Notes: generated from the sequence alone by a model not told the origin. DNA of 64,000 nucleotides from Candidatus Heimdallarchaeota archaeon (GCA_019056785.1 DXJV01000001.1:1-64000); one strand, 5' to 3'. Counted from the stretch's first letter, positions 40,631-52,566 are shown. Program-made: numbers and translations.

Positions 40631-41242
40631 TTATTTAATATCAATTTGTGCTTTACAAATTGGACAATGTTGCTTGGAAGAAAGCCATTCGATTAAATGG
40701 TCGTCATGGAAGAGAGTATAGCAATTGGGGCACTGGAGGACGAGGTCATCTTTTGTTAAGATTAGTTTGCAAATGCCACAAGTCTGTTCTTCCAATGTTC
40801 CTCTGTAAATTAACGGGGCAATTTTCTGCCAATCGACTTCGTAGGTTTCAGCTTGTTCCTGCAAGCGTATTTGTGAATTCTCTTCAACCTGTTTTGGTAT
40901 CTTTAATGGTGAGTCATCAATTGCTTCTGAGGATTGATACGGTGCTGCTAATTTGGTAGAAGAAACTCTCTCTCCGGATGGCGTTTGTTTCTTTAAAGCA
41001 CTGAATGCTCCTGTAAAAGTCGCTATTGTGGTAAATATTACGACTATGATAAATACAGACATGCCAATGCCACCAACTATCACAAATGGTAAATACGTTT
41101 TAAAATCCATTAAGCGATTAAAATCTCCGCCAATTAATCCAACTCTAATTACCAATGCAATTCCTGATAAGATAACAAGCCCAAAACTGATAAAACCAAT
41201 AATTAACGGAATTGAAAAACGTACAGTTTTTTTTGTCTTCAA
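40631..41242 (-). CDS. Two-TM membrane protein with C-terminal RING-type zinc finger (putative E3 ligase)
   Basis: CGIC..CPNC..H..H..EW..CPIC. Confidence 0.82.
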   Translation of the reverse strand: MKTKKTVRFSIPLIIGFISFGLVILSGIALVIRVGLIGGDFNRLMDFKTYLPFVIVGGIGMSVFIIVVIFTTIATFTGAFSALKKQTPSGERVSSTKLAAPYQSSEAIDDSPLKIPKQVEENSQIRLQEQAETYEVDWQKIAPLIYRGTLEEQTCGICKLILTKDDLVLQCPNCYTLFHDDHLIEWLSSKQHCPICKAQIDIK

Positions 41243-41388
41243 TTTAGTTCCTATTGATGATTATTTTTTAATTATTAAAACCTTTGTAAAAATAACATAG
41301 GCATAAAAATAGAATTAAAAGTAGTCAAAAAAGGCGTTTAAAATTTTGTCGAAAGAAATTTCAATAAAAAAGAAAAAAAAAGAAGTTA

Positions 41389-42291
41389 TTATTCGCTAAC
41401 TTCTTGTACCTGAATGGCTGCTTTTTTAATATCATGAGAAGAACTGAAGGAATAAATAATATGCATGCCTTCTCGTTCTTTCATGGTTCGTACAATCCAG
41501 GCTTTTCCGCGAATTCTTTTCTTTAACCAATCTGGTAAGATCCAACCGAGATAGCCAAAGATCAGCCGTAAAATTGTTGCCGCTAATCGCAAGGCTTGTA
41601 AGAAAAGCATTGCTTTTGAATTCGAATAAATACTTGGGAGGTAAAACAGCACGAGTACAACGGTACTTCCTATCAGAGAAACAATACTTATGTCAATGTA
41701 CAATATTCCTCTTTTTGGCACCGGTTCGGTTATTTTCCTATCAATAATAACAACATTGTAGCTAATTCTTAGCAAGACAAAGATAAGTAATGGAATAAAC
41801 AATACGAGTGAAAGAGCTGCTACCGGCGCAAAAATCTCAATGTTCGTATTTGGCAATAAGAAGAGGTCACTTGTATTAATATACAAGTCCTCTCCAAGTA
41901 ATAACTCTGAAAACATGGTAGTAGTAACTACTGCGATTGTTTCACTGAGGAACACACCCATGAGTGATTTGACAAAGTCATTGTCCTTGAGAATATGTCG
42001 TGTGGAAAAGAAATAGAAGAATAAGATACTTAAGGCATACAAGTTCAAGAATAGTATTTGGAAAATTCCTGAGAGATTTTTTGAACTAATATTAAAAGCC
42101 TCAAACCAATAGGATAGTGTATTTGCACCCTCTCCTAAACCGAGTAAAGTAAAAGTGAACAATAAAAATGCTGTACCAAGAGTCTTTTTCTTGATAAAAG
42201 CATAAAGCAAGAATAATGCATAACTAATTGCGAAAATCCCAAGAAACAAAGAGGTAATGAGATAAAACCATGTTTGACCTGTAAGTGCCAT
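41389..42291 (-). CDS. Seven-TM membrane protein of unknown function
   Basis: About 7 hydrophobic helices by eye; ends YLGWILPDWLKKR followed by a soluble tail. Confidence 0.75.
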   Translation of the reverse strand: MALTGQTWFYLITSLFLGIFAISYALFLLYAFIKKKTLGTAFLLFTFTLLGLGEGANTLSYWFEAFNISSKNLSGIFQILFLNLYALSILFFYFFSTRHILKDNDFVKSLMGVFLSETIAVVTTTMFSELLLGEDLYINTSDLFLLPNTNIEIFAPVAALSLVLFIPLLIFVLLRISYNVVIIDRKITEPVPKRGILYIDISIVSLIGSTVVLVLFYLPSIYSNSKAMLFLQALRLAATILRLIFGYLGWILPDWLKKRIRGKAWIVRTMKEREGMHIIYSFSSSHDIKKAAIQVQEVSE

Positions 42292-42295
42292 TTTT

Positions 42296-42829
42296 TCATT
42301 CTCCTAAAATTTTTATGAACCAAGACATTGATTCAAAAATACCTTCACCTGTTTTAGCTGAAGTTTCAAAGACTGCCCACGTGATTTTTAAATTTGGGTC
42401 CATTAAACCAAAATCGCCGACAAATTATACACGTTCCATCCTATCGGGCAGATTAATTTTACTAAGAATTATCAACAATACCGGAATTTCAGGATTGATT
42501 TGGTTTTTAATTATGTTGTGGAAAATTTCCTTTGTCTCTTCAAACCAGAGATAATCTGTGCTATCTACAACATAAATAAGTGCATTTGTTTTTTCATTGA
42601 TATCTGTTCATAGAGGCCGAAAATCTTCTCCTCCCAAATCAAAAATATGGATGTCTAAATTTGGAAAGCTAATTGTTTTACGATTCAATCCCATTGTTGG
42701 TGCTGTTTCTTTGAATTCTTCTTCGATTAAATAGTTTAAATAAGTAGTTTTCACTGCTTTGTCCAAGCCGCAAATTGTTAGATTAACTGGTTTCGACTTG
42801 CGTCTGAAGAGCCTGCGGAGAAATACCAT
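42296..42829 (-). pseudogene. Pseudogenised Arf-family small GTPase (178 codons, two in-frame stops)
   Basis: The frame continues past TGA 42608-42610 (RPL*, normally RPLW) and TAA 42425-42427 to ..ALIYVVDST..ETSAKTGEGIFESMSWF..; the P-loop reads GLDKAVKTT, G3 DLGGE and G4 SKIN. Confidence 0.88.
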
Positions 42830-42856
42830 TTGTCTCTTGCCCCCTCCTCTTACTTG

Positions 42857-43357
42857 CTATCTCCAAATGTCGTCTTTAACAGACTCGAGAAATTCTTCAC
42901 CTCGATCTTTCTTTTTCTTTTTTGAATCGTCATCAAAGTTGAATTCTAAGGTGACAACAGAACTGATTTTAATCTTAACTTTCCCTTTTTTGAGACCTTC
43001 CAACATACTTGACAGAATCTTAGAGAAGGTATTGGTATCGCTCATGTTGTATCTTTGAAGTTCCATGATCGTGGAGAAGAATTTCCGAACAGTATCACGG
43101 TCATAATTTGGATTGTCGTAGATAGCCACTAAGGAGGCAATGTTCTGCCGTTCATCACTGGGAACCGAGAAAATAAAGCACTCTATTTGATAGCCTTCTA
43201 CTGTACTAGAGGCAAAATCACCTGCTTTGGCACTAAGGGGCATACTCTTCAAGACAATTTCATTCAAAATAATATTGGGTATGGTATCAGGGACAACTGT
43301 GACAAGTTCAAGCCCAGACTTTCCAATGCTCGTTAAACAAAGGTTTGTTGGTTTCAA
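42857..43357 (-). CDS. Longin/uDENN-like small protein
   Basis: Strand/helix pattern (..IVLKSMP..ECFIF.V....RQNIASLVAIY..) resembles uDENN/longin; sits directly upstream of an Arf gene. Confidence 0.5.
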   Translation of the reverse strand: MKPTNLCLTSIGKSGLELVTVVPDTIPNIILNEIVLKSMPLSAKAGDFASSTVEGYQIECFIFSVPSDERQNIASLVAIYDNPNYDRDTVRKFFSTIMELQRYNMSDTNTFSKILSSMLEGLKKGKVKIKISSVVTLEFNFDDDSKKKKKDRGEEFLESVKDDIWR

Positions 43358-43641: not shown

Positions 43642-45777
43642 ATGGTCAAACAAAAACAAACAATCCTTTTGGTAAGTCTAATAGTCATTTCAAGTTTTTT
43701 TTTGTGTTTTAGTATACAGAGAAATTCCAGTGGGGTATCTGCTTTTGACTATCCTGTTACTCGCAGCCAGGAAGACCTTACAATTGAGTTCACCACAAAC
43801 CAATCTGGCATTGGAAAAGACAGTGGTGCTTTAGGAACCTTGGTCCTAAGAAATAATGGTGCAAATGCCATTGGGAACATCGCTATTGACTTTGGTCTTA
43901 ATGGGAAATACGTAGAAATAACTACTAGTTATGCTCAGCATCAAGAGCTAAGCCTGTTAAACCCCGGCTATTCTGAAACATTCAATATCGAAGTTGGATT
44001 AAACAAGTCAGAATTTACCGGTGAGGAACCATTAAACATGGTAGATCTTTGTCTCGTCTTTGATAGTAGCGGTTCAATGGGTGAGGAAATCGAGGCTGTA
44101 AAAAATGCGTTCTTAGACATTGTAAGCAATTTAACTGAACAGATCGATTCTCTCCAAATTGGTGCTATTGCCTATGGTTGGGCGAAATACTCGGAATATC
44201 CACAAGAAAGTCCAAACAATTACGTTCCCTTTACCGAAGACTTTGATTGGGTGAATGATTTTATTAATAGCCTTTATCCTGCAGGAGGGACCGAACCGTG
44301 GGGAGACGCTCTCTACCTGGCAAATAGCTGGAATTGGCGCCCGGATGCAAACAAACTTCTCATAATTGTTGGAGATGAGGATTGCGACCCGGGTAAAATT
44401 GTTGGGGCCGGTTCTTCCGGTTCTTATTATAATGGTTCACAATTGGTGGAGGTCGTTGAAAACCTGAAGGCAAAAGAGGTCAAGATTAATTCAGTTCGTA
44501 CAGGAAATGAAGCAATTTTCGTTAATCAATTCACATGGATAGCTGAAGCCACAGAAGGTATAAGTGTAGATCTTGAGGAGCTTCAAAATGGCGATCCACC
44601 GATCACTCTGCCTGAGCTAATTGAATCATGGACCTTGGAACTCAAGCGAGAATACTATATCTATCTTTATGCTAATATTACTTGGACAGAATTTGATGTG
44701 GGAGGAGATATTACTTATTCCACCCAAAAAGGACTTTATTTGTTATTTGATGTTGCTCCACCTTTTATTAGCGTTTCAACATTAGTAATAGCAAATCCTG
44801 ATTCCACATTTACATTTCAAATCTATGCAACAGTCAAAGATTTATCAGGCATCGCTACGACCAGTATTTACTGGACCTTTGATGACCTAGACGGTGGGTC
44901 CGAACCTCTCTGGCATTTTGAGATTTTAAGTAATATTTCCAATCATGTCTATTTGAAAGAATTAACAGGGTTAGCTCTCGGGGAAAACCTTTCGTTTTAT
45001 TTTGTTGCATTTGATTCATTATACAATCGCGGAGAAAGCCAGATATACAACTGCACAGTGGAAATTCAAAAAAATGTCTTTGGGACAACAACAACAGTCT
45101 TCTTTCCGGCTAATAATACAATGGTCGCCCTCTATTTCGACTTAGCGAAAAAGTCGTATGGGTATTTGAGACTTGATAATTTTATTGGTAGCTATTCACT
45201 TTTGCCAAATTCAAACTTCACTCTTGAAACCAAATTTGTCAGTGAAGATAAGCAAATCGTTCGTGTGATTAAAACGGGTTTAGAGGATTTCGCAGTAATC
45301 ACCTTTGTTGGCAATACAACAACTGACCCAACAATAATCTTCTGGAACTTCGATATTTTCTTAATAGAGGAAGAATTAAATGGCTATAGTTCCTATTTCG
45401 ATGCTAAAAGAACAAACCTTTTGATTCGTGTTGAAATTAGCAATGAAAATCAACTCTGCTTGGTTAGAATTGATCCAGAGCTCATAGCAGTTGTCAAAGT
45501 CTTCGATGAAAATTGGAATTACATCGGAAAAGCCAGTTTCACAGAAGCGTTAACACTAGTAGAAGGGACTTATTATCTTTGGGCGTATAATGTCTTACGA
45601 GATGGATCCTTTAAATTCTATTTCGGGAATGATCCCCCCCTAGAAACAGATAACTATTATAACCAGGTGCCAATTCCATTCCCGATACTTCTTCTTATCG
45701 TTATTCTCACACTAAGTGGGTTTTCCCTCTTTAATCGAAGAAAGAAGCACCGGGGAAAATATAAACAAAGGATTTAG
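43642..45777 (+). CDS. Membrane-anchored vWA (MIDAS) / Ig-like surface protein
   Basis: VDLCLVFDSSGSM (DxSxS), GGTEPWGDAL, WRPDANKLLIIVGDE; signal peptide; C-terminal TM plus basic tail. Confidence 0.88.
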   Translation: MVKQKQTILLVSLIVISSFFLCFSIQRNSSGVSAFDYPVTRSQEDLTIEFTTNQSGIGKDSGALGTLVLRNNGANAIGNIAIDFGLNGKYVEITTSYAQHQELSLLNPGYSETFNIEVGLNKSEFTGEEPLNMVDLCLVFDSSGSMGEEIEAVKNAFLDIVSNLTEQIDSLQIGAIAYGWAKYSEYPQESPNNYVPFTEDFDWVNDFINSLYPAGGTEPWGDALYLANSWNWRPDANKLLIIVGDEDCDPGKIVGAGSSGSYYNGSQLVEVVENLKAKEVKINSVRTGNEAIFVNQFTWIAEATEGISVDLEELQNGDPPITLPELIESWTLELKREYYIYLYANITWTEFDVGGDITYSTQKGLYLLFDVAPPFISVSTLVIANPDSTFTFQIYATVKDLSGIATTSIYWTFDDLDGGSEPLWHFEILSNISNHVYLKELTGLALGENLSFYFVAFDSLYNRGESQIYNCTVEIQKNVFGTTTTVFFPANNTMVALYFDLAKKSYGYLRLDNFIGSYSLLPNSNFTLETKFVSEDKQIVRVIKTGLEDFAVITFVGNTTTDPTIIFWNFDIFLIEEELNGYSSYFDAKRTNLLIRVEISNENQLCLVRIDPELIAVVKVFDENWNYIGKASFTEALTLVEGTYYLWAYNVLRDGSFKFYFGNDPPLETDNYYNQVPIPFPILLLIVILTLSGFSLFNRRKKHRGKYKQRI

Positions 45778-45788
45778 GAGGAACAAAA

Positions 45789-48700
45789 GTGTTACGTCGG
45801 AAATTGCAGCGATATGTCATAATAACCAGCACTATCTTAGTCATCCTATTAGTTGCAACAATAACAACTTATGCGTTTCAAAAGGACCAAAAATTAACGA
45901 ATCCACAATTAGTGGAAGATTATTCGTATACATTAATTGACAACACTTCTTTCAATTTTTCTACCATTGAATTTGAGAGCATTAATTATAATAGTTCAAT
46001 GACTGTTGTTGATGTTCTCTCGATTGATGATTCTCTAACTAGCCCTCCGAATCTAATCATGGTTTATGGTTCAAAAGAAAATACTACAGGGTATCAGCAT
46101 GGATTCATTGAGCTTTATGCTGTAAGCCAAGTTGGCTACCAAGCGGCGCTCCAAAAAGTGGCGGGATTCCTTGATGCTTCCCTAGACAATGAGACAGTAT
46201 TCCAAAAAGGATGTTATTTTATCAATAACATTAATGACCTTTTCTTCTATATGTTAAAGCAGAAAGGTCCGGATTATTTTATTGATATATTGGCTTATCA
46301 GAATCAGCACTTGGAATTAAACGCCTCCATCCCAATTAACTCTTTACTGTTAGAAGAAACATGGGATTTTGCTGTCATGGATAAAGAACCGGACAAACTT
46401 GTCAATCTCTTTCTGGTCGGGCAAAATCAAACCACACATAAAATTTCCTTAGTAGAGTTTCAGTTAAATGTGACAACCACAAACATGAATTATATTCAAT
46501 CATTTTCTTGGGATTTTCAAGGAAAAACCTTTGTTGATTTACAGACAACCTTGGAAGCTGACGCTGCGTACTTCTATCTTTGTAGCGTGGGAACGAGTCC
46601 AGCTTTATATACTTCCATGACTGTTTTTTCAGTTCAAAAAACCCTAGAAAGCTCCCTCACACTGGTAAGTAATAACAGCTATACTTATGGGGGCAATTCT
46701 TTCAGAGCTTACTCAACAAAATTCTTGTCAAGAGCTAACACCGGGCACAAACAGCTAGCATTGTTTGGAACATTAATTATCGATGGTGTAGATAGCTATC
46801 CTTATTGTCTAATTCTCTCCTATACAAATGGCGTTCCAACAGCAGCGGAGGGAATACAACTGGAGCAAACGCCTAGTTGGTGTTTAACAGGTTTTATTGC
46901 TGATTTAAACTATGACAGCGAAAGAGAACTTGTGCTTTTCACATATGACTTTGTTTATCATCAGCGAAGTGAGTTTACACTTCTTTCTAACACCACTAAG
47001 CAAGAACTTACTAGCGGTTTGTACTCTTTTTCACAAGTCAAAAGCAGCGCTTTGTTAACAATTGAGGGGTTGAGTATAAGCGCCATCTTAGCTAAAGACT
47101 CGAGTCAAAACGATGTTTTAGTTTTTCACAAACTCGGGTTTACACCCTTTAAATTACGAGCAAATTCTGAATTATTGCAAATTAATGCTCTAAACAGTTT
47201 ACTCTTAGAAAGCTATGGCATAAATGGTACACCTATTACGGTCTCAAATGCAATTACTAATTTTGCTGTACATGGGGTGGTGAATTTAGACACAACTATA
47301 ACAATAATGCCTTCAATAATAACCTTAGAAATACCTAGCGTTGCTCACTCGAGTGATCTTTTACAGTTCTCTATTGATATCTTTCAAAATTCGTTCGTTA
47401 TTTACAGTAAAACATTTTATGTGTCGTTGGGATATGTGCCAAAGATAACTGTGATTGCCCCAGGGTCACCAATAGCAATCCGTTTGAATGAGTCTAAAAC
47501 CGAGATTTTTGAATTTTTAGTAAACAATCAACTGCCGGTTACTTTAATCGGTGAAATTTCTATTATTAGTTCGCAAAGAACAAAGACTACCCAAATCAAT
47601 TGTTTGCCAGCCGAAGAGACCGAAATAGGCATCAACTTCAATTTTGCAAAGCCTGTCGGAACAAAACAAGCAGTTGAGAATCTATCAATTCTAATTAAAA
47701 CTCAAATTGGAACTTTCAGATTCCAATATGCTGTAGTAGTTTCAACTGGTTTGACAATTGGCTATATGGATCTAACAGCAATAACGGTTACTTTACTCCT
47801 TATAACAACGATAGGTTATTTAGCTTTTGTTTTTGCCATCTCTCGAGAGACAGAAGAAAGTCTCGAAGCCTATTACTTGTTAAAGGAACCCAAGAAGCTG
47901 GAGTTCAAAAGATTTGAAAAACAAGCACAAAGACATTTGCTTCAAAAATGCCTTCAGAATAAAAACTGGCAAGTGGGGTTGGAATTAGCAAAGGCTCGTT
48001 ACCCCGAGTACGTTGCGAAATTCCTAAAGTTCAAAGCAGACGAACAATTACTCATGGCTCAAAAGCTTCTCCAGAATGGAGAATTTATCAAAGGTTTATC
48101 CCATTTGGAATCTGCTCGCGAAGCTCTAGAAATGATCCGTTCCAAACCAATCGTTGAGCTCCTTGATGGGTTCATTATACCCTTAAAGAAGCTCTTAGAT
48201 GCTATAGAACATATGAAAGGGTTAGAGAAAGTTGCCATGCTCAAAGATGCTTTTCAGAAGTTGCTGCGATTACGTAAAAAGAAAGAAGAAGAGAAAAAAG
48301 GAGAAGAGGAAGCGTTTTCCTTAAAAGAATTCCCATTCTATCTTATCGCCAAAGAATTAGCTGTTGCTTTCAAAGAAAATGGTGACTTGGAAAATGCATT
48401 GAATTTCTTGCAAATCGCATATCAGGACGCTCCCAATGGGAAGAAAAATGACATCGTGCTGGAAATCACAGACCTTATTCGCCTCGGATTAAAGCCGAAA
48501 GAACTAACAATTCCAGATGATTTTGAGGTAATAAAAGAGCGGTTAAAGAATAAAAAAATAATGTGCTTTAATTGCGGGTTCAAATACTTTGACTCTGAAC
48601 CAACTTGTCCGCAGTGTGGTACCGGAACAGTTAAATGTTCTGTTTGTAAACTGCCGATTTCTTTTGGTTCTTTAACACTCGAGTGCCCTCATTGTCATAC

Positions 48701-48809
48701 CATTGCTCACCAAGAACATCTCCTCGAGTGGATAAAAGTCAAAGGCACCTGTCCGGTCTGCCAGCAAAAATTGAAGCTTGATGAGTTTTCTCCAATAACT
48801 CAAATATAG
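45789..48809 (+). CDS. Single-pass receptor-like protein: large ectodomain, TM, helical region, zinc ribbon and RING finger
   Basis: Signal peptide; IADLNYDSERELV; TM at about aa 661-684; CFNC..CPQC; CSVC..CPHC..H..H..EW..CPVC. Confidence 0.85.
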   Translation: MLRRKLQRYVIITSTILVILLVATITTYAFQKDQKLTNPQLVEDYSYTLIDNTSFNFSTIEFESINYNSSMTVVDVLSIDDSLTSPPNLIMVYGSKENTTGYQHGFIELYAVSQVGYQAALQKVAGFLDASLDNETVFQKGCYFINNINDLFFYMLKQKGPDYFIDILAYQNQHLELNASIPINSLLLEETWDFAVMDKEPDKLVNLFLVGQNQTTHKISLVEFQLNVTTTNMNYIQSFSWDFQGKTFVDLQTTLEADAAYFYLCSVGTSPALYTSMTVFSVQKTLESSLTLVSNNSYTYGGNSFRAYSTKFLSRANTGHKQLALFGTLIIDGVDSYPYCLILSYTNGVPTAAEGIQLEQTPSWCLTGFIADLNYDSERELVLFTYDFVYHQRSEFTLLSNTTKQELTSGLYSFSQVKSSALLTIEGLSISAILAKDSSQNDVLVFHKLGFTPFKLRANSELLQINALNSLLLESYGINGTPITVSNAITNFAVHGVVNLDTTITIMPSIITLEIPSVAHSSDLLQFSIDIFQNSFVIYSKTFYVSLGYVPKITVIAPGSPIAIRLNESKTEIFEFLVNNQLPVTLIGEISIISSQRTKTTQINCLPAEETEIGINFNFAKPVGTKQAVENLSILIKTQIGTFRFQYAVVVSTGLTIGYMDLTAITVTLLLITTIGYLAFVFAISRETEESLEAYYLLKEPKKLEFKRFEKQAQRHLLQKCLQNKNWQVGLELAKARYPEYVAKFLKFKADEQLLMAQKLLQNGEFIKGLSHLESAREALEMIRSKPIVELLDGFIIPLKKLLDAIEHMKGLEKVAMLKDAFQKLLRLRKKKEEEKKGEEEAFSLKEFPFYLIAKELAVAFKENGDLENALNFLQIAYQDAPNGKKNDIVLEITDLIRLGLKPKELTIPDDFEVIKERLKNKKIMCFNCGFKYFDSEPTCPQCGTGTVKCSVCKLPISFGSLTLECPHCHTIAHQEHLLEWIKVKGTCPVCQQKLKLDEFSPITQI

Positions 48810-48892: not shown

Positions 48893-49444
48893 TTAATTGA
48901 TTCGTTGAAGTAACAGGTCGCTGTAAGAATAGCTTTGGATTTCTTCTTTCTTAATGGCAAATTTTTCTATGAATGTTTGCACCTTTTCTTTAAGCTCAGC
49001 AAACTCATGGGGCGTTTCTGTCATAGCTTCAATTTCAATGAATGTCCCTAACCCCTCCACATTGTCCAGATTAAATTTAATATTTTGGATCCAGACAACT
49101 TCTCGAATTTTTTTTACTTCCACTAAGACTTCAAAAGCTGCTCGTAATACTTTCTCAAGTTTCGCTGGTGTGGCAGTGGGATAGAGTTCAAAATGACTTG
49201 GCCTAATCTCCTGGAGATCCTCTCGTTTGTAATATATCAAATAACTTTGTTTTGCTCCCTTGCGTAACTTTAACCGCCCTTTCGTTATTTTAAAATAAAT
49301 ATCCGTTTGCTCTTCTTGCCCTAGAAAAATTCCTCCTTCCTTTTCAAGAATAGCTTTTATCATAGAGAGGTCTTGGCATTTTGCTTTTATTTCAACAGTA
49401 AACATCTCTTCATCCTCAATCAATAAATACCTTCTCACTAACAA
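48893..49444 (-). CDS. cyaB: CYTH-domain protein (class IV adenylate cyclase-like)
   Basis: VEIK, Q.D.YF, RLKLR, V.K.R, D.V.GLG.FIEIE, SYSDLL; probable start is MFTVEIK. Confidence 0.85.
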   Translation of the reverse strand: MLVRRYLLIEDEEMFTVEIKAKCQDLSMIKAILEKEGGIFLGQEEQTDIYFKITKGRLKLRKGAKQSYLIYYKREDLQEIRPSHFELYPTATPAKLEKVLRAAFEVLVEVKKIREVVWIQNIKFNLDNVEGLGTFIEIEAMTETPHEFAELKEKVQTFIEKFAIKKEEIQSYSYSDLLLQRIN

Positions 49445-49510: not shown

Positions 49511-50863
49511 ATGTTTTATTCCAGAGTTTTTTACCGTGGCCTTGTCGTTGCTCTTCTCTTTTTTCTCAGTTGTAATCCATTTAAAACTCAAGCGATCTCA
49601 CCAATAAGGGAAGTGACTGGCATTTTCAATCACCATGAAAATTTTCATCTCAATTTCGATGAAGGTTATGTGTGGTTTTGGGACGAATTTGCAAGTGCCG
49701 GAGGGGACGGGCCCGGGAATGACGTGGAGAATTGGGGCGGAAATTTGGGAGCATTTCATAATGCCTCTGAGATTTGGGCAAAACTTCATTCCTTAGAACA
49801 CCATTTTCCATCTATTATACAATTGGCAGATCTTGGCTTTAGTTACAATGGAAGACTTATACTACTTGTGATTATCACCGATGAAAGCGTTCAATCTTTC
49901 AAGAAAGAGGTTTTAATTGTAGCACATCACCATGGCCGTGAAGTAATTACTATTGAAAACTGTCTTTATTACATAGACAAATTGGTTTATGAGTTTCAGA
50001 ATAAAAATAGCACCATTCAGGAGTTGTTAGCTAAGAGAATAATCTATGTGATCCCTACTTTAAATCCAGATTCATTGGATATTGTTTATCGCTGGCCATA
50101 TGTTAGGAAAAATCTGCATCCTATTGATGAGGATGGTGATGGGATACGAGATGAAGAAGAAATCCTTTATAACTACGACTCGAGGGATAATGATACAACA
50201 ATAGGCGAAGATTTCCCGGGTGGAGTGGATTTGAATCGAAATTACCCCTTCCAATGGAATAACACCTCGGACAATAGTGCAGATCCGCATAGCTTTGTTT
50301 ATCGAGGTGCAAGCCCGTTTTCAGAGCCAGAGACAAGGGCTTTCGCAGAATTTGTAAGAAAGCATGACTTCCAATCAGCAACATCACTACATTCAGGGGT
50401 AGAATTAATACTCACACCATGGGCATATGACCCTCAAATAGACTGTCCTGATGAAGAAGTCTATATCAACCTGGCAGTAGAACTAACACGAGTGACAGGC
50501 ATCCCACATACAGACTTGTACCCAGCAATAGGAGAATGGGGAGATTGGATGTACGGAGCAAGGGGAATTGTTTCAGTTACAATAGAAACCTATAGACGAG
50601 AAAACGCAGCCTATGTTTGGGACTATTTCAACCCTCCGCCAAATAAAGTGCTTGCGGTGTCTGAAAGAGTATACCCAGGACTCTTGCTAATGACAAGCTA
50701 CACACGACAGGAACTGCAAATTGATCCATTGGAAAACATCACTAGAAGTAATACTTATTCTCCAACAGAGGAGACCAAACCGCCAAAAACAGCCCTTTTA
50801 GCCGGACTTTTGGGAAGCTGGATTGTTAGTATTGTCATCAGAAAAAAGGTGAAAAAATTATAG
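49511..50863 (+). CDS. M14 zinc carboxypeptidase, membrane anchored
   Basis: HGRE, NPD, RKN, GVDLNRN, FSEPET, SLHS, TIE. Confidence 0.92.
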   Translation: MFYSRVFYRGLVVALLFFLSCNPFKTQAISPIREVTGIFNHHENFHLNFDEGYVWFWDEFASAGGDGPGNDVENWGGNLGAFHNASEIWAKLHSLEHHFPSIIQLADLGFSYNGRLILLVIITDESVQSFKKEVLIVAHHHGREVITIENCLYYIDKLVYEFQNKNSTIQELLAKRIIYVIPTLNPDSLDIVYRWPYVRKNLHPIDEDGDGIRDEEEILYNYDSRDNDTTIGEDFPGGVDLNRNYPFQWNNTSDNSADPHSFVYRGASPFSEPETRAFAEFVRKHDFQSATSLHSGVELILTPWAYDPQIDCPDEEVYINLAVELTRVTGIPHTDLYPAIGEWGDWMYGARGIVSVTIETYRRENAAYVWDYFNPPPNKVLAVSERVYPGLLLMTSYTRQELQIDPLENITRSNTYSPTEETKPPKTALLAGLLGSWIVSIVIRKKVKKL

Positions 50864-51522: not shown

Positions 51523-52566
51523 ATGAGCGACTTAAAAACGAATGCTTTAAAAGAATTGGTTTCAACCCCCAAGGATTTGAACAAACTAATTCTCTATGAA
51601 GCTAATCTCAAAAAGGCTTATTTATTATTACTTTTTGACTGTCGCACTTCTCTTCTTAATAGTTTGCAAGGCGGTGGGCTTTCCCCTCGAATTGATCGTC
51701 TTTTGCGCCAATTAAAAACCAGGCTTGATTCCTTAATTGACCGGGCCCGTTATGATGAATTGCGTTTTCGTCCAGGAACAGCCGCTTCCGTTCGAAAAAC
51801 AACTGCGAATAATTGTCTGCTCTATAATTTCATCATTTTCAGTCGTGCTTGGGATTTGAAAGATTATTTAAAGGAATTTGATTCACTTCTTCTTTTTAGT
51901 GAAGAGGCGCAAACTCTTGATAAAGCAAAATCCATTTTACGTATTATTACTGATATTGATGATTTGCTCTCCAATAAAGAGAACGTTAAAACCAACATTC
52001 AATCAACAGAAGAGGTGGCTAATTCCCTGTACGAACGTTTTAACCGTGAATTAGAACTAGCTGAAACTGCTGGTGCGCTTAAAGGAATTATTAAATTAGA
52101 GAAGCCCAAGTTATTAGGGAAATCGAAATATTTCAAGCAGTTGGGAAGTTTAATCTTGAAAGTGGCTTTTTCTTTTGGCATAGAACATGCAGAGGAGCCC
52201 ATTTCTCTCATTGCCCTGACAACTCGCTTAAACGACACCTACCCTCGGGTTCGAGCTGAGCCAAAAGATATTTTTAAAGCAGTAGAAAGCCTTGCTGAGA
52301 ATGGCTTTCTCTATTTAACGAAAGACGAACATGATGTCTATTGGATCTCCTTAAAACCATCTGAAAGCGAAGCAAATGTCATTCTTTCTTTAGCTGAGAA
52401 GAAAGGGTCCTTAACACTCGAGGAAGTAGTCCGGGAAACGAATTGGTCATTAAAGAAGGCTAAGAGCGAATTAGATAAATTTGTCACAGCTGGTTGCGCT
52501 ATTAAGGATGATAACTACTCTTCTGGCCTTATTTATTACTTCCCAGCATTGCAAAACGAAGAGTGA
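51523..52566 (+). CDS. EAP30-domain (ESCRT-II Vps22/Vps36-like) protein with N-terminal helical extension
   Basis: YF.QLG..I, ISL..L...L, DI.KAV..L, IL.LA...G.LT..V.....W....A...L......G....D......YYFP match tandem winged helices. Confidence 0.72.
   Translation: MSDLKTNALKELVSTPKDLNKLILYEANLKKAYLLLLFDCRTSLLNSLQGGGLSPRIDRLLRQLKTRLDSLIDRARYDELRFRPGTAASVRKTTANNCLLYNFIIFSRAWDLKDYLKEFDSLLLFSEEAQTLDKAKSILRIITDIDDLLSNKENVKTNIQSTEEVANSLYERFNRELELAETAGALKGIIKLEKPKLLGKSKYFKQLGSLILKVAFSFGIEHAEEPISLIALTTRLNDTYPRVRAEPKDIFKAVESLAENGFLYLTKDEHDVYWISLKPSESEANVILSLAEKKGSLTLEEVVRETNWSLKKAKSELDKFVTAGCAIKDDNYSSGLIYYFPALQNEE

Follow-up and report, generated by a model that had tools for sequence, protein, structure and literature searches.

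A candidate two-chain surface receptor of Asgard archaea with an integrin-like layout and a cytoplasmic RING finger

In a 64,000-nucleotide stretch of DNA from a Candidatus Heimdallarchaeota archaeon (GCA_019056785.1 DXJV01000001.1:1-64000; the whole stretch is hereafter called the window), two adjacent genes encode what we interpret, with a probability of about 0.6, as a conserved two-chain surface receptor of Asgard archaea. Gene 1 encodes a chain built around a von Willebrand factor A (vWA) domain and gene 2 a beta-propeller chain that ends in a cytoplasmic RING finger, an arrangement that recalls the layout of the integrins. The evidence for this interpretation comes from the gene structures, the modelled folds, the conserved pairing of the two genes, and a complex prediction that passed its controls. 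Few known archaea are as closely related to eukaryotes as the Heimdall-group Asgard archaea, and the pair bears on a question of eukaryogenesis, namely how cells of this group sense and hold partners. No description of the gene pair was found in the searchable literature on Asgard archaea with integrin, RING or vWA.

An initial reading of the DNA (the sequence-only reading) had described two single-pass proteins encoded 11 nt apart, with an AGGAGG site over the first stop codon. The open reading frame (ORF) coordinates and sites match that description exactly. The TAG stop of gene 1 occupies 45775-45777, the GTG start of gene 2 lies at 45789, and the spacer between them is 11 nt. All of the motifs that had been quoted (DSSGS, WRPDANKLLIIVGDE, GTLVLRN, ETFNIEV, YLYANITW, and IADLNYDSERELV) were also found in the proteins. 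As the upstream neighbour of the pair is divergent and the downstream neighbour convergent, genes 1 and 2 make up a unit of their own. Both have homologues, in 70 clusters for gene 1 and 16 clusters (about 1000 aa) for gene 2, which shows that these are not chance ORFs. DNA of the locus was found also in several independent sediment and hydrothermal-vent metagenomes. By hydropathy, each chain has an N-terminal hydrophobic helix and one later transmembrane (TM) helix. The gene 2 product carries 13 N-glycosylation sequons in its ectodomain and none in its cytoplasmic part, a distribution that fits the proposed topology. Judged from this arrangement, genes 1 and 2 appear to form a bicistronic operon that would encode the two chains of one cell-surface complex.

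Domain architecture of the two chains

The vWA domain with a metal-ion-dependent adhesion site (MIDAS) that had been claimed for gene 1 was confirmed. The Pfam VWA model (PF00092) scores 38.8 bits against a cut-off of 23.8, and the MIDAS residues are invariant in the 46 homologues of the family alignment, in which D141, S143, S145, M146, E149, E218-P-W-G221, and D245 are invariant and D222 nearly so. The AlphaFold2 (AF2) model of gene 1, built on these 46 homologues, has a predicted local distance difference test score (pLDDT) of 83.8 and orders the chain as a helix, six strands (46-120), the vWA domain, a hairpin, about 290 residues of beta domains, and the TM helix. A phmmer search with full-length gene 1 against PDB sequences gave no match at E <= 1, and an ESM Atlas shape search returned only generic vWA clusters. 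In the stalk, positions 389-461 of the family profile match the immunoglobulin-like (Ig-like) domain of peptidylarginine deiminase (E 7e-4). The gene 1 ectodomain contains only 4 Cys, and the 14-residue tail contains four Lys.

The sequence-only reading had further proposed that the vWA domain is inserted into an Ig-like domain. The position of the vWA domain between Ig-type strands was recovered in the AF2 model, while the insertion itself is supported indirectly, by the truncation of the Pfam CARDB match, by the span of the Foldseek alignments, and by the predicted contacts. The CARDB match is partial, running over residues 45-122 and profile positions 3-73 of 101, and it stops directly before the vWA domain, which is followed by the two-strand hairpin. 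In the complex prediction presented below, the N-terminal Ig loops and the tip of this hairpin lie side by side at the same end, as expected for one sandwich that is interrupted by a vWA domain. In the model, the hairpin probably completes the Ig sandwich, and the vWA domain is probably carried on, and inserted into, a CARDB-like Ig domain.

For gene 2, the AF2 model of residues 30-692 (pLDDT 86.6; predicted template modelling score 0.75) contains about 28 strands, two Ig-like domains, and the TM helix. In VIA structural alignments the propeller reached Z 26.8 with integrin alpha-M (428 residues aligned with the first leg included, root-mean-square deviation (rmsd) 7.3 Å) and Z 26.7 with the 7-blade WD40 protein Ski8 (324 residues aligned, rmsd 3.6 Å). 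These alignments indicate that the propeller is 7-bladed and that the propeller-plus-legs layout is as in integrin alpha. The nearest ESM Atlas structures to the gene 2 ectodomain were archaeal FG-GAP clusters (template modelling score 0.70 over 417 aligned residues), with FG-GAP_3 in 100% and FG-GAP in 96% of the members of the nearest clusters. The Ca-loop motif D-x-[DN]-x-[DN]-x3-[DE] is kept in 13/13 family members at site 2 (residue 372) and in 10/13 at site 1 (residue 198). For the modelled propeller, an FG-GAP type is best indicated by these Atlas neighbours together with the conserved Ca loops. The FG-GAP-like propeller of the sequence-only reading was thus recovered, with seven blades by AF2, Foldseek, and VIA. 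The Pfam FG-GAP model gave no match on gene 2, FG-GAP_3 was found on 4/13 family members at sub-threshold levels (E of at least 0.05), and a profile of the gene 2 ectodomain gave only chance-level matches to PDB sequences.

The cytoplasmic region of gene 2 that precedes the zinc ribbon (686-920) matched nothing in Pfam or among PDB sequences. In an ESM Atlas feature search with the cytoplasmic part (686-991), coatomer-alpha C-terminal and IFT121 TPR/zinc-finger clusters were nearest, with scores of 0.80 or less, a level that is reached by chance for a third of shuffled proteins and that makes these clusters a lead only. A propeller followed by a helical region and a C-terminal zinc finger is a proto-coatomer layout too, but here the membrane separates the propeller from the rest.

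The RING finger was detected by the Pfam zf-RING_2 model at 23.8 bits on the whole of gene 2 and at 27.9 bits on the cytoplasmic part alone, against a cut-off of 27.3. Using the cytoplasmic profile, the nearest PDB sequences to the RING were RNF126, EL5, RNF38, synoviolin, RNF24, Arkadia, RLIM, AMFR, RNF13, and plant RMR. The nearest matches to the finger itself were all RING-H2 E3 ubiquitin ligases (E 0.0013 to 0.4), and the remaining rows of the cytoplasmic-profile list were TRIM RINGs and zinc-ribbon matches. No PDB chain with a GATOR2-type ZnF-RING tail came up with this profile, and a likeness to those tails was rejected. With H974 and H977 at ligand positions 5 and 6, and with C966 and C969 in place of the C-x-H pair, the ligand set is C4-H2-C2. 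Residues V952, W981, and P989, which we take to be E2-contact positions as in RING-E2 structures, are conserved in the gene 2 family and align with the same positions of RNF126, EL5, and RNF38. The position after the first RING Cys is V or I in the family, and the proline of the C-P-x-C motif is conserved. By these sequence features, the RING appears to be of the E2-recruiting, ubiquitin-ligase type and looks able to bind an E2. The same genome contains three UBC-fold matches and one ubiquitin match above the Pfam cut-offs. The UBC-fold matches lie at C84:3485-3859, C52:10466-10729, and C47:89345-89596, and the ubiquitin match at C18:48270-48467. From the RING features together with the E2 and ubiquitin genes we infer that the pair may signal by ubiquitination.

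Predicted complex and conservation of the pairing

The complex was predicted from the gene 2 propeller and gene 1 residues 43-480, in three runs with three controls. The complex score was 0.72 (0.72, 0.78, and 0.72 in the three runs), and the best of the three controls scored 0.00. The mark applied is reached by 58/80 solved complexes and by 2/110 mismatched pairs, counts that are rough here as custom alignments were used. The runs share at least 82% of their contacts, and the pLDDT of the partner is at least 82. The confident interface on chain 1 consists of residues 45, 72-78, 104-110, and 351-356, which belong to the N-terminal Ig loops and the hairpin tip (351, 353, and 356 come from the hairpin), and no vWA residue lies within it. 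Among the chain 2 residues at the interface are Y308, which is invariant, and R306 and W364, which are nearly so. An interface between the chains, which the sequence-only reading had put forward as a check, is thus predicted with controls passed. The expectation that the propeller would dock on the vWA domain did not hold, as the prediction docks the Ig part on the propeller instead. Since this docking is unlike that of integrins, recall of solved integrin complexes is unlikely to be the source of the score.

The gene 1 family consists of proteins of about 700 residues, and all of those returned by the homologue search are from Asgard archaea. When species-representative genomes were scanned, 47 full-length Asgard loci of this vWA family were recovered, which a maximum-likelihood tree resolved into three well-supported clades. 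Clade A includes the window and has 11 loci, with a propeller-RING protein of about 1015 aa directly 3' in 8 of them. Clade B has 14 loci from Hod-, Thor-, Hermod-, Prometh-, and Heimdall-labelled genomes and no RING of this type. At 8 of the clade B loci, the vWA gene adjoins one for a protein of about 790 aa, in which a signal peptide is followed by a 7-blade WD40 propeller, TSP3 repeats of bacterial type, a TM helix, and, on the cytoplasmic side, zinc fingers rich in Cys. Clade C has 21 loci from Heimdall genomes, and in every case the next gene overlaps the vWA gene; its product, about 440 aa long, combines a signal peptide with a beta-rich ectodomain (about 300 residues), a TM helix, and a RING of the type seen in gene 2. 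Only the RING is common to the clade A and clade C partners (hhalign probability 98% over 52 columns). Each vWA clade has its own single-pass partner with a cytoplasmic zinc finger. The constant vWA chain and the swapped partners over three clades suggest a modular receptor system that is specific to Asgard archaea.

The clade B partner is found at L020:8170-10509 and also at L003, L015, L016, L017, L022, L024, and L026. Its WD40 propeller should be extracellular given the signal peptide, which is unusual, and the TSP3 repeats are calcium repeats. In clade C, the Heimdallarchaeum aukensis locus (L050:5524-8987) has a 720-aa vWA chain whose gene overlaps (ATGA) that of a 434-aa partner with a zf-RING_2 score of 29.1 bits.

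All of the gene 2 relatives that were examined lie directly 3' of a gene 1 relative (8 distinct loci and 4 look-ups, some on the same contigs), and the gene 2 homologues of the 4 look-ups each follow a vWA gene by 38-54 nt. The gene 2 ectodomain family is present in 8/10 other species of the same genus and in 0/72 of the remaining genomes of the class; genome completeness is 83% and 69% for the two congeners that lack it. Conservation of the pair in relatives had also been proposed as a check, and is seen both in this strict order and in the 8/10 congeners. Within the gene 2 family, mean pairwise identity climbs from 24% in the legs through 30% in the propeller and 46% in the cytoplasmic region to 66% in the zinc ribbon and RING. 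When the same relatives are compared, identity is 44-63% for neighbouring genes, 39-46% for gene 1, and 22-29% for the gene 2 ectodomain. The locus thus changes fastest in the outer part of chain 2, and the inner part of that chain ranks among the slowest, as would be expected of a receptor. No fused vWA-plus-partner protein longer than 1245 aa turned up in a search for such fusions, a negative that carries little weight.

Receptor reading, integrin likeness, and alternatives

For the receptor reading we infer a surface location, binding of the two chains in the cell, a ligand, and E3 activity. Chain 1 would display its MIDAS vWA domain on the CARDB-like Ig domain atop the beta-rich stalk, and would be held by its single TM helix with the short Lys-rich tail. 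Chain 2 would carry its Ca-loop propeller on two Ig-like legs and, after one pass through the membrane, continue into the conserved cytoplasmic region, the zinc ribbon, and the RING of E2-recruiting type. Contact between the chains would be made by the Ig part on one side and the propeller on the other, an arrangement that would leave the MIDAS face free for a metal-dependent ligand. A ligand or cell contact at the fast-evolving ectodomains would be coupled to the intracellular RING, which, with a host E2 and ubiquitin, could ubiquitylate a nearby target. The target could be the chain 1 tail with its Lys residues, it could be chain 2, or it could be a cytoplasmic protein that docks on the conserved region, and the outcome would be signalling or ubiquitin-dependent turnover. 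The pair thus offers a concrete, testable candidate for a complex of integrin layout wired to a RING, in a genome with E2, ubiquitin, and ESCRT-II-like proteins (ESCRT, endosomal sorting complexes required for transport). If the RING is active, gene 2 would be a prokaryotic example of a receptor-type membrane E3, and the pair would permit direct tests of ubiquitin-dependent receptor signalling or turnover before eukaryotes.

Several observations weigh against the receptor reading. The interface residues are not significantly more conserved than background, with p = 0.07 for gene 2 and p = 0.4 to 0.67 for gene 1. Both the vWA insertion and the docking geometry rest on residue lists and alignment lengths, not on coordinates. 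The remaining 3 clade A loci form a sub-clade of paralogues with no RING gene nearby, although one of these contigs ends just past the gene. The C4-H2-C2 ligand set is unusual for a RING, with PHD-like spacing between ligands 3 and 6, and we know of no E3 activity for this RING subtype. The same RING type is present at the C-terminus of 13 ORFs in the same genome, 9 of them with hydrophobic helices, so the RING module is not specific to the vWA pairing. Only gene 2 among the 13 follows a vWA gene; the RING tail is thus a common Asgard membrane-protein module, and the vWA pairing is what is specific to this locus.

The sequence-only reading had also called the pair integrin-like. The layout supports this description through the Foldseek ranks and the domain order; the docking, the hallmark domains and motifs, the generic vWA domain, and the marginal sequence similarity do not. 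Similar to the pair, integrins consist of two single-pass chains, one with a MIDAS vWA domain flanked by Ig-type strands on a stalk and the other with a 7-bladed Ca-loop propeller on Ig-like legs. In integrins, however, the beta-I domain docks on the alpha propeller, whereas here the Ig part is predicted to make the contact. Integrin alpha has three legs (thigh, calf-1, and calf-2) and gene 2 has two Ig-like legs, and, unlike integrin alpha, the gene 2 chain has about 320 cytoplasmic residues that end in a RING. Integrins possess PSI, I-EGF, and beta-tail domains and the GFFKR and NPxY motifs, and the pair is without all of them. Pfam gave no PSI, I-EGF, or beta-tail match on gene 1, NPxY is absent from the gene 1 tail, and GFFKR is absent after the gene 2 TM helix, beyond which the chain continues for about 320 residues. 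The likeness to integrins appears to be a similarity of architecture, not an established common descent.

True homology, in which the pair would share an ancestor with integrin beta and alpha and stand as their prokaryotic forerunner or sister, the alpha-like chain having gained a RING, is in our judgement distinctly improbable, although a number of results point to it. In Foldseek searches of the PDB, integrin chains came out best for each of the two proteins independently. Gene 1 matched integrin beta headpieces first (E 1e-11 to 1e-9) over 380-400 columns, far beyond the vWA domain alone, with the pilus adhesin PitA (7w6b) as the fourth match, and gene 2 matched integrin alpha ectodomains first (alpha-V, alpha-X, alpha-M, alpha-IIb, and alpha-5; E 1e-10 to 1e-8), with sialidases, MET, and plexins behind them. 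The FG-GAP-type Ca loops and FG-GAP Atlas neighbours of gene 2 are consistent with such an origin. With the gene 1 family profile, integrin beta-1, beta-3, and beta-6 are matched at E 0.08 to 0.5 over the junction between the last Ig strands and the MIDAS strand, and the Pfam Integrin_beta model has sub-threshold matches in 10/46 family members (best E 9e-4). The H. aukensis relative from clade C scores 21.9 bits with Integrin_beta against a cut-off of 24.8, and 33/36 of its PDB sequence matches are integrin beta chains, with integrin beta-6 best at E 0.002. Integrin repeats are reported in Asgard genomes by Liu et al. 2021, as cited in PMC9197732 and PMC9258230, and a different, integrin-beta-4-like family adjoins tubulin/FtsZ genes (PMC9258230). 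Against common descent, the rigid vWA domain taken alone is best matched in VIA by generic vWA domains (TFIIH p44, ITIH1, Mfa5, CMG2, and alpha-I; Z 19-21, rmsd 2.2-2.9 Å), with no beta-I domain among the 50 VIA matches listed. The vWA domain of the window has no significant match among PDB sequences, the weak top matches being alpha-L I domains at E 0.3. With the family profile SpaC (E 0.004) and collagen VI score better than the integrins, and Integrin_beta (PF00362) does not match the window protein at E <= 0.1. The propeller Z score ties with that of WD40 and the FG-GAP Pfam models stay below threshold; the absence of every hallmark and the docking by the Ig part, not the vWA domain, also speak against homology, and a vWA domain inserted in a beta sandwich occurs in pilus-tip adhesins and ITIH as well. 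The propeller partner is found in one genus only, and other clades use a WD40 propeller or a short beta domain, which argues for partner swapping versus an ancient alpha/beta pair. The wider proposal, that Asgard modules of a vWA chain and a zinc-finger-tailed partner are the prokaryotic stock of eukaryotic integrin-type adhesion receptors, with the propeller-RING pair the most integrin-like of them, is a long shot. If it were true, a receptor coupled directly to a membrane RING ligase and feeding the Asgard ubiquitin-ESCRT system would represent ancestral, pre-eukaryotic outside-in signalling and receptor down-regulation.

Two other explanations concern what the RING does. The chains might be a ligase and its substrate rather than a receptor dimer, with a membrane E3 of the ZNRF3, RNF43, or MARCH kind that ubiquitylates the chain 1 tail and controls its surface abundance, possibly via ESCRT, and with no outside-in signalling. 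We consider this unlikely. The four Lys in the 14-residue tail would serve such a role, but the positive-inside rule would lead one to expect basic residues behind any TM helix. The RING partner is variable and the vWA chain constant over three clades, as this model would have it, and the predicted complex is needed by this model too. The ESCRT-II-like EAP30 gene about 2.7 kb downstream recurs near the pair in L001 and L087, yet this recurrence may only mirror the gene order common to one genus. The turnover and signalling readings overlap, and the evidence does not separate them. It is very unlikely, in our estimate, that the pair is instead an adhesin or coat complex of the cell surface whose RING-like finger, without ligase function, is a structural zinc module and links the complex to the membrane, the cytoskeleton, or proteins of the cytoplasm. 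The C4-H2-C2 finger, with ligands 3-6 spaced as C-x2-C-x4-H-x2-H, is PHD-like compared with the C-x-H-x2-H of RING-H2, the sequence matches to RING E3s are marginal (best E 0.0013), and the long conserved cytoplasmic region has no known family, all of which would suit a structural module. The Pfam RING model nevertheless scores above its cut-off, the PDB sequence neighbours of the finger are all active RING-H2 E3s, the hydrophobic E2-contact positions are conserved, and E2 and ubiquitin genes are present in the genome.

By analogy, the pair is closest in logic to the eukaryotic receptor-type TM RING ligases. The PA-TM-RING proteins (RNF13 and plant RMR) and ZNRF3/RNF43 likewise join, through one TM helix, a protein-binding domain on the extracellular or luminal side to a RING in the cytoplasm, and the PDB sequence neighbours of the gene 2 RING include RNF13 together with AT5G66160, a plant RMR. 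ZNRF3 and RNF43 have a surface receptor as the partner on which they act, a parallel to the ligase and substrate explanation above. In contrast to the PA-TM-RING proteins, the gene 2 ectodomain is a propeller with Ig legs, not a PA domain. Compared with the eukaryotic TM RING ligases in general, gene 2 adds a conserved region of about 235 residues and a zinc ribbon before the RING, has the C4-H2-C2 ligand set, comes from an archaeon, and has its partner in the same operon.

Other known systems resemble one chain or the other. The pilus-tip adhesins PitA and SpaC, and ITIH1, share with gene 1 the collinear order of strands, MIDAS vWA domain, and strands, and ITIH1 aligned to residues 42-334 of the gene 1 model over 250 residues with Z 20.6 in VIA. 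These proteins are secreted or pilus-linked and are without a TM anchor, propeller partner, or RING. Among predicted structures, the gene 2 ectodomain comes closest to FG-GAP/VCBS propeller surface proteins of archaea and bacteria, with which it shares the Ca-loop motif. Gene 2 differs from them in being sub-threshold in Pfam, in having only two conserved Ca loops, one of which is lost in the window copy, and in its extra TM helix, cytoplasmic region, zinc ribbon, and RING. The Sib proteins of Dictyostelium are single-pass surface proteins with a beta-like vWA domain, and the vWA_SIBA-E model gives a sub-threshold match (E 3.2e-5) on the clade C relative. Only 1/46 members of the gene 1 alignment match this model, however, and gene 1 is without a talin-binding NPxY tail. 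To our knowledge, the Sib proteins have no propeller partner.

The vWA domain of H. aukensis is the family member closest in sequence to integrin beta chains. Its alignment pairs D-x-S-x-S-M-D-D (with D-L-S-A-S-M-D-D of integrin beta-6), P-L-T-x-D, P-x-G-D-A, and W-R-x-D...L-I-V...D, and so takes in the MIDAS/ADMIDAS stretch.

Feature coordinates and neighbouring genes

Table 1. Features of the gene pair and genes near it, in window coordinates
Feature	Position	Strand	Basis
Gene 1, vWA/MIDAS surface chain, 711 aa, ATG start	43642..45777	+	ORF; homologues; AF2
Signal or anchor helix, residues 7-25	43660..43716	+	Hydropathy; AF2 helix 2-26
CARDB-like Ig domain, N-terminal part, residues 45-122, with predicted contact loops 72-78 and 104-110	43774..44007	+	Pfam CARDB; AF2 strands; predicted interface
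vWA domain, residues 131-336	44032..44649	+	PF00092; VIA
MIDAS D-S-S-G-S, residues 141-145	44062..44076	+	Family conservation
Post-vWA beta hairpin, residues 338-369, tip 351-356 in predicted interface	44653..44748	+	AF2, two 13-residue strands
Beta-rich stalk, residues 375-662, several predicted beta-sandwich domains	44764..45627	+	AF2 strands
TM helix (678-697) and 14-residue basic, Lys-rich cytoplasmic tail (698-711)	45673..45774	+	Sequence; hydropathy
AGGAGG Shine-Dalgarno-like site, overlapping the gene 1 TAG, 7 nt 5' of the gene 2 GTG	45776..45781	+	Sequence read directly
Gene 2, propeller-Ig-TM-helical-zinc ribbon-RING chain, 1006 aa, GTG start	45789..48809	+	ORF; homologues; family alignment
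7-bladed beta-propeller, FG-GAP type, residues about 54-451	45948..47141	+	AF2; VIA; ESM Atlas
FG-GAP-type Ca-loop site 1, residues 198-206, degenerate in window copy	46380..46406	+	Family motif
FG-GAP-type Ca-loop site 2, residues 372-380, D-L-N-Y-D-S-E-R-E	46902..46928	+	Family motif
Two Ig-like legs, residues about 463-557 and 569-652	47175..47744	+	AF2 strands; align with integrin alpha thigh/calf region
TM helix, residues 662-684	47772..47840	+	Sequence; hydropathy; AF2 helix
Conserved cytoplasmic region, residues 686-920, helical by sequence reading	47844..48548	+	Conservation
Zinc ribbon, C926, C929, C940, C943	48564..48617	+	All four Cys invariant; weak DZR and Zn_ribbon matches
RING, ligands C950, C953, C966, C969, H974, H977, C988, C991	48636..48761	+	zf-RING_2; ligands invariant or nearly so
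Small TM protein with the same RING type	40631..41242	-	
Multi-TM protein	41389..42291	-	
166-aa protein	42857..43357	-	Weak KGK match
CYTH-domain gene, convergent	48893..49444		
M14 zinc carboxypeptidase	49511..50863		E 3e-49
EAP30/ESCRT-II-like gene	51523..52566		

In the relatives L001, L085, L086, and L087, the vWA gene has a D-serine-dehydratase-like gene 150-300 nt upstream of it. In the window, an insert of about 3 kb (region 40631-43357) separates the two genes and contains the small TM protein with the same RING type, the multi-TM protein, and the 166-aa protein listed in Table 1. The 13 RING-type ORFs of the genome (G000) constitute an expanded family of membrane-anchored RING proteins, with examples at C47:102312-103532, C47:59408-60682, C14:37362-39215, C14:28097-30196, C99:3666-5024, and C51:55540-56748.

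On the 3' side of the pair, the CYTH-domain and EAP30/ESCRT-II-like genes recur in L001, L084, and L087, relatives that are only 40-46% identical in gene 1. This recurrence may reflect shared gene order within one genus, or it may reflect a link to the ubiquitin-ESCRT system. The M14 zinc carboxypeptidase has an N-terminal signal-like helix, a C-terminal hydrophobic anchor, and a basic tail end, and is probably another surface protein; it adjoins the pair in L001 too.

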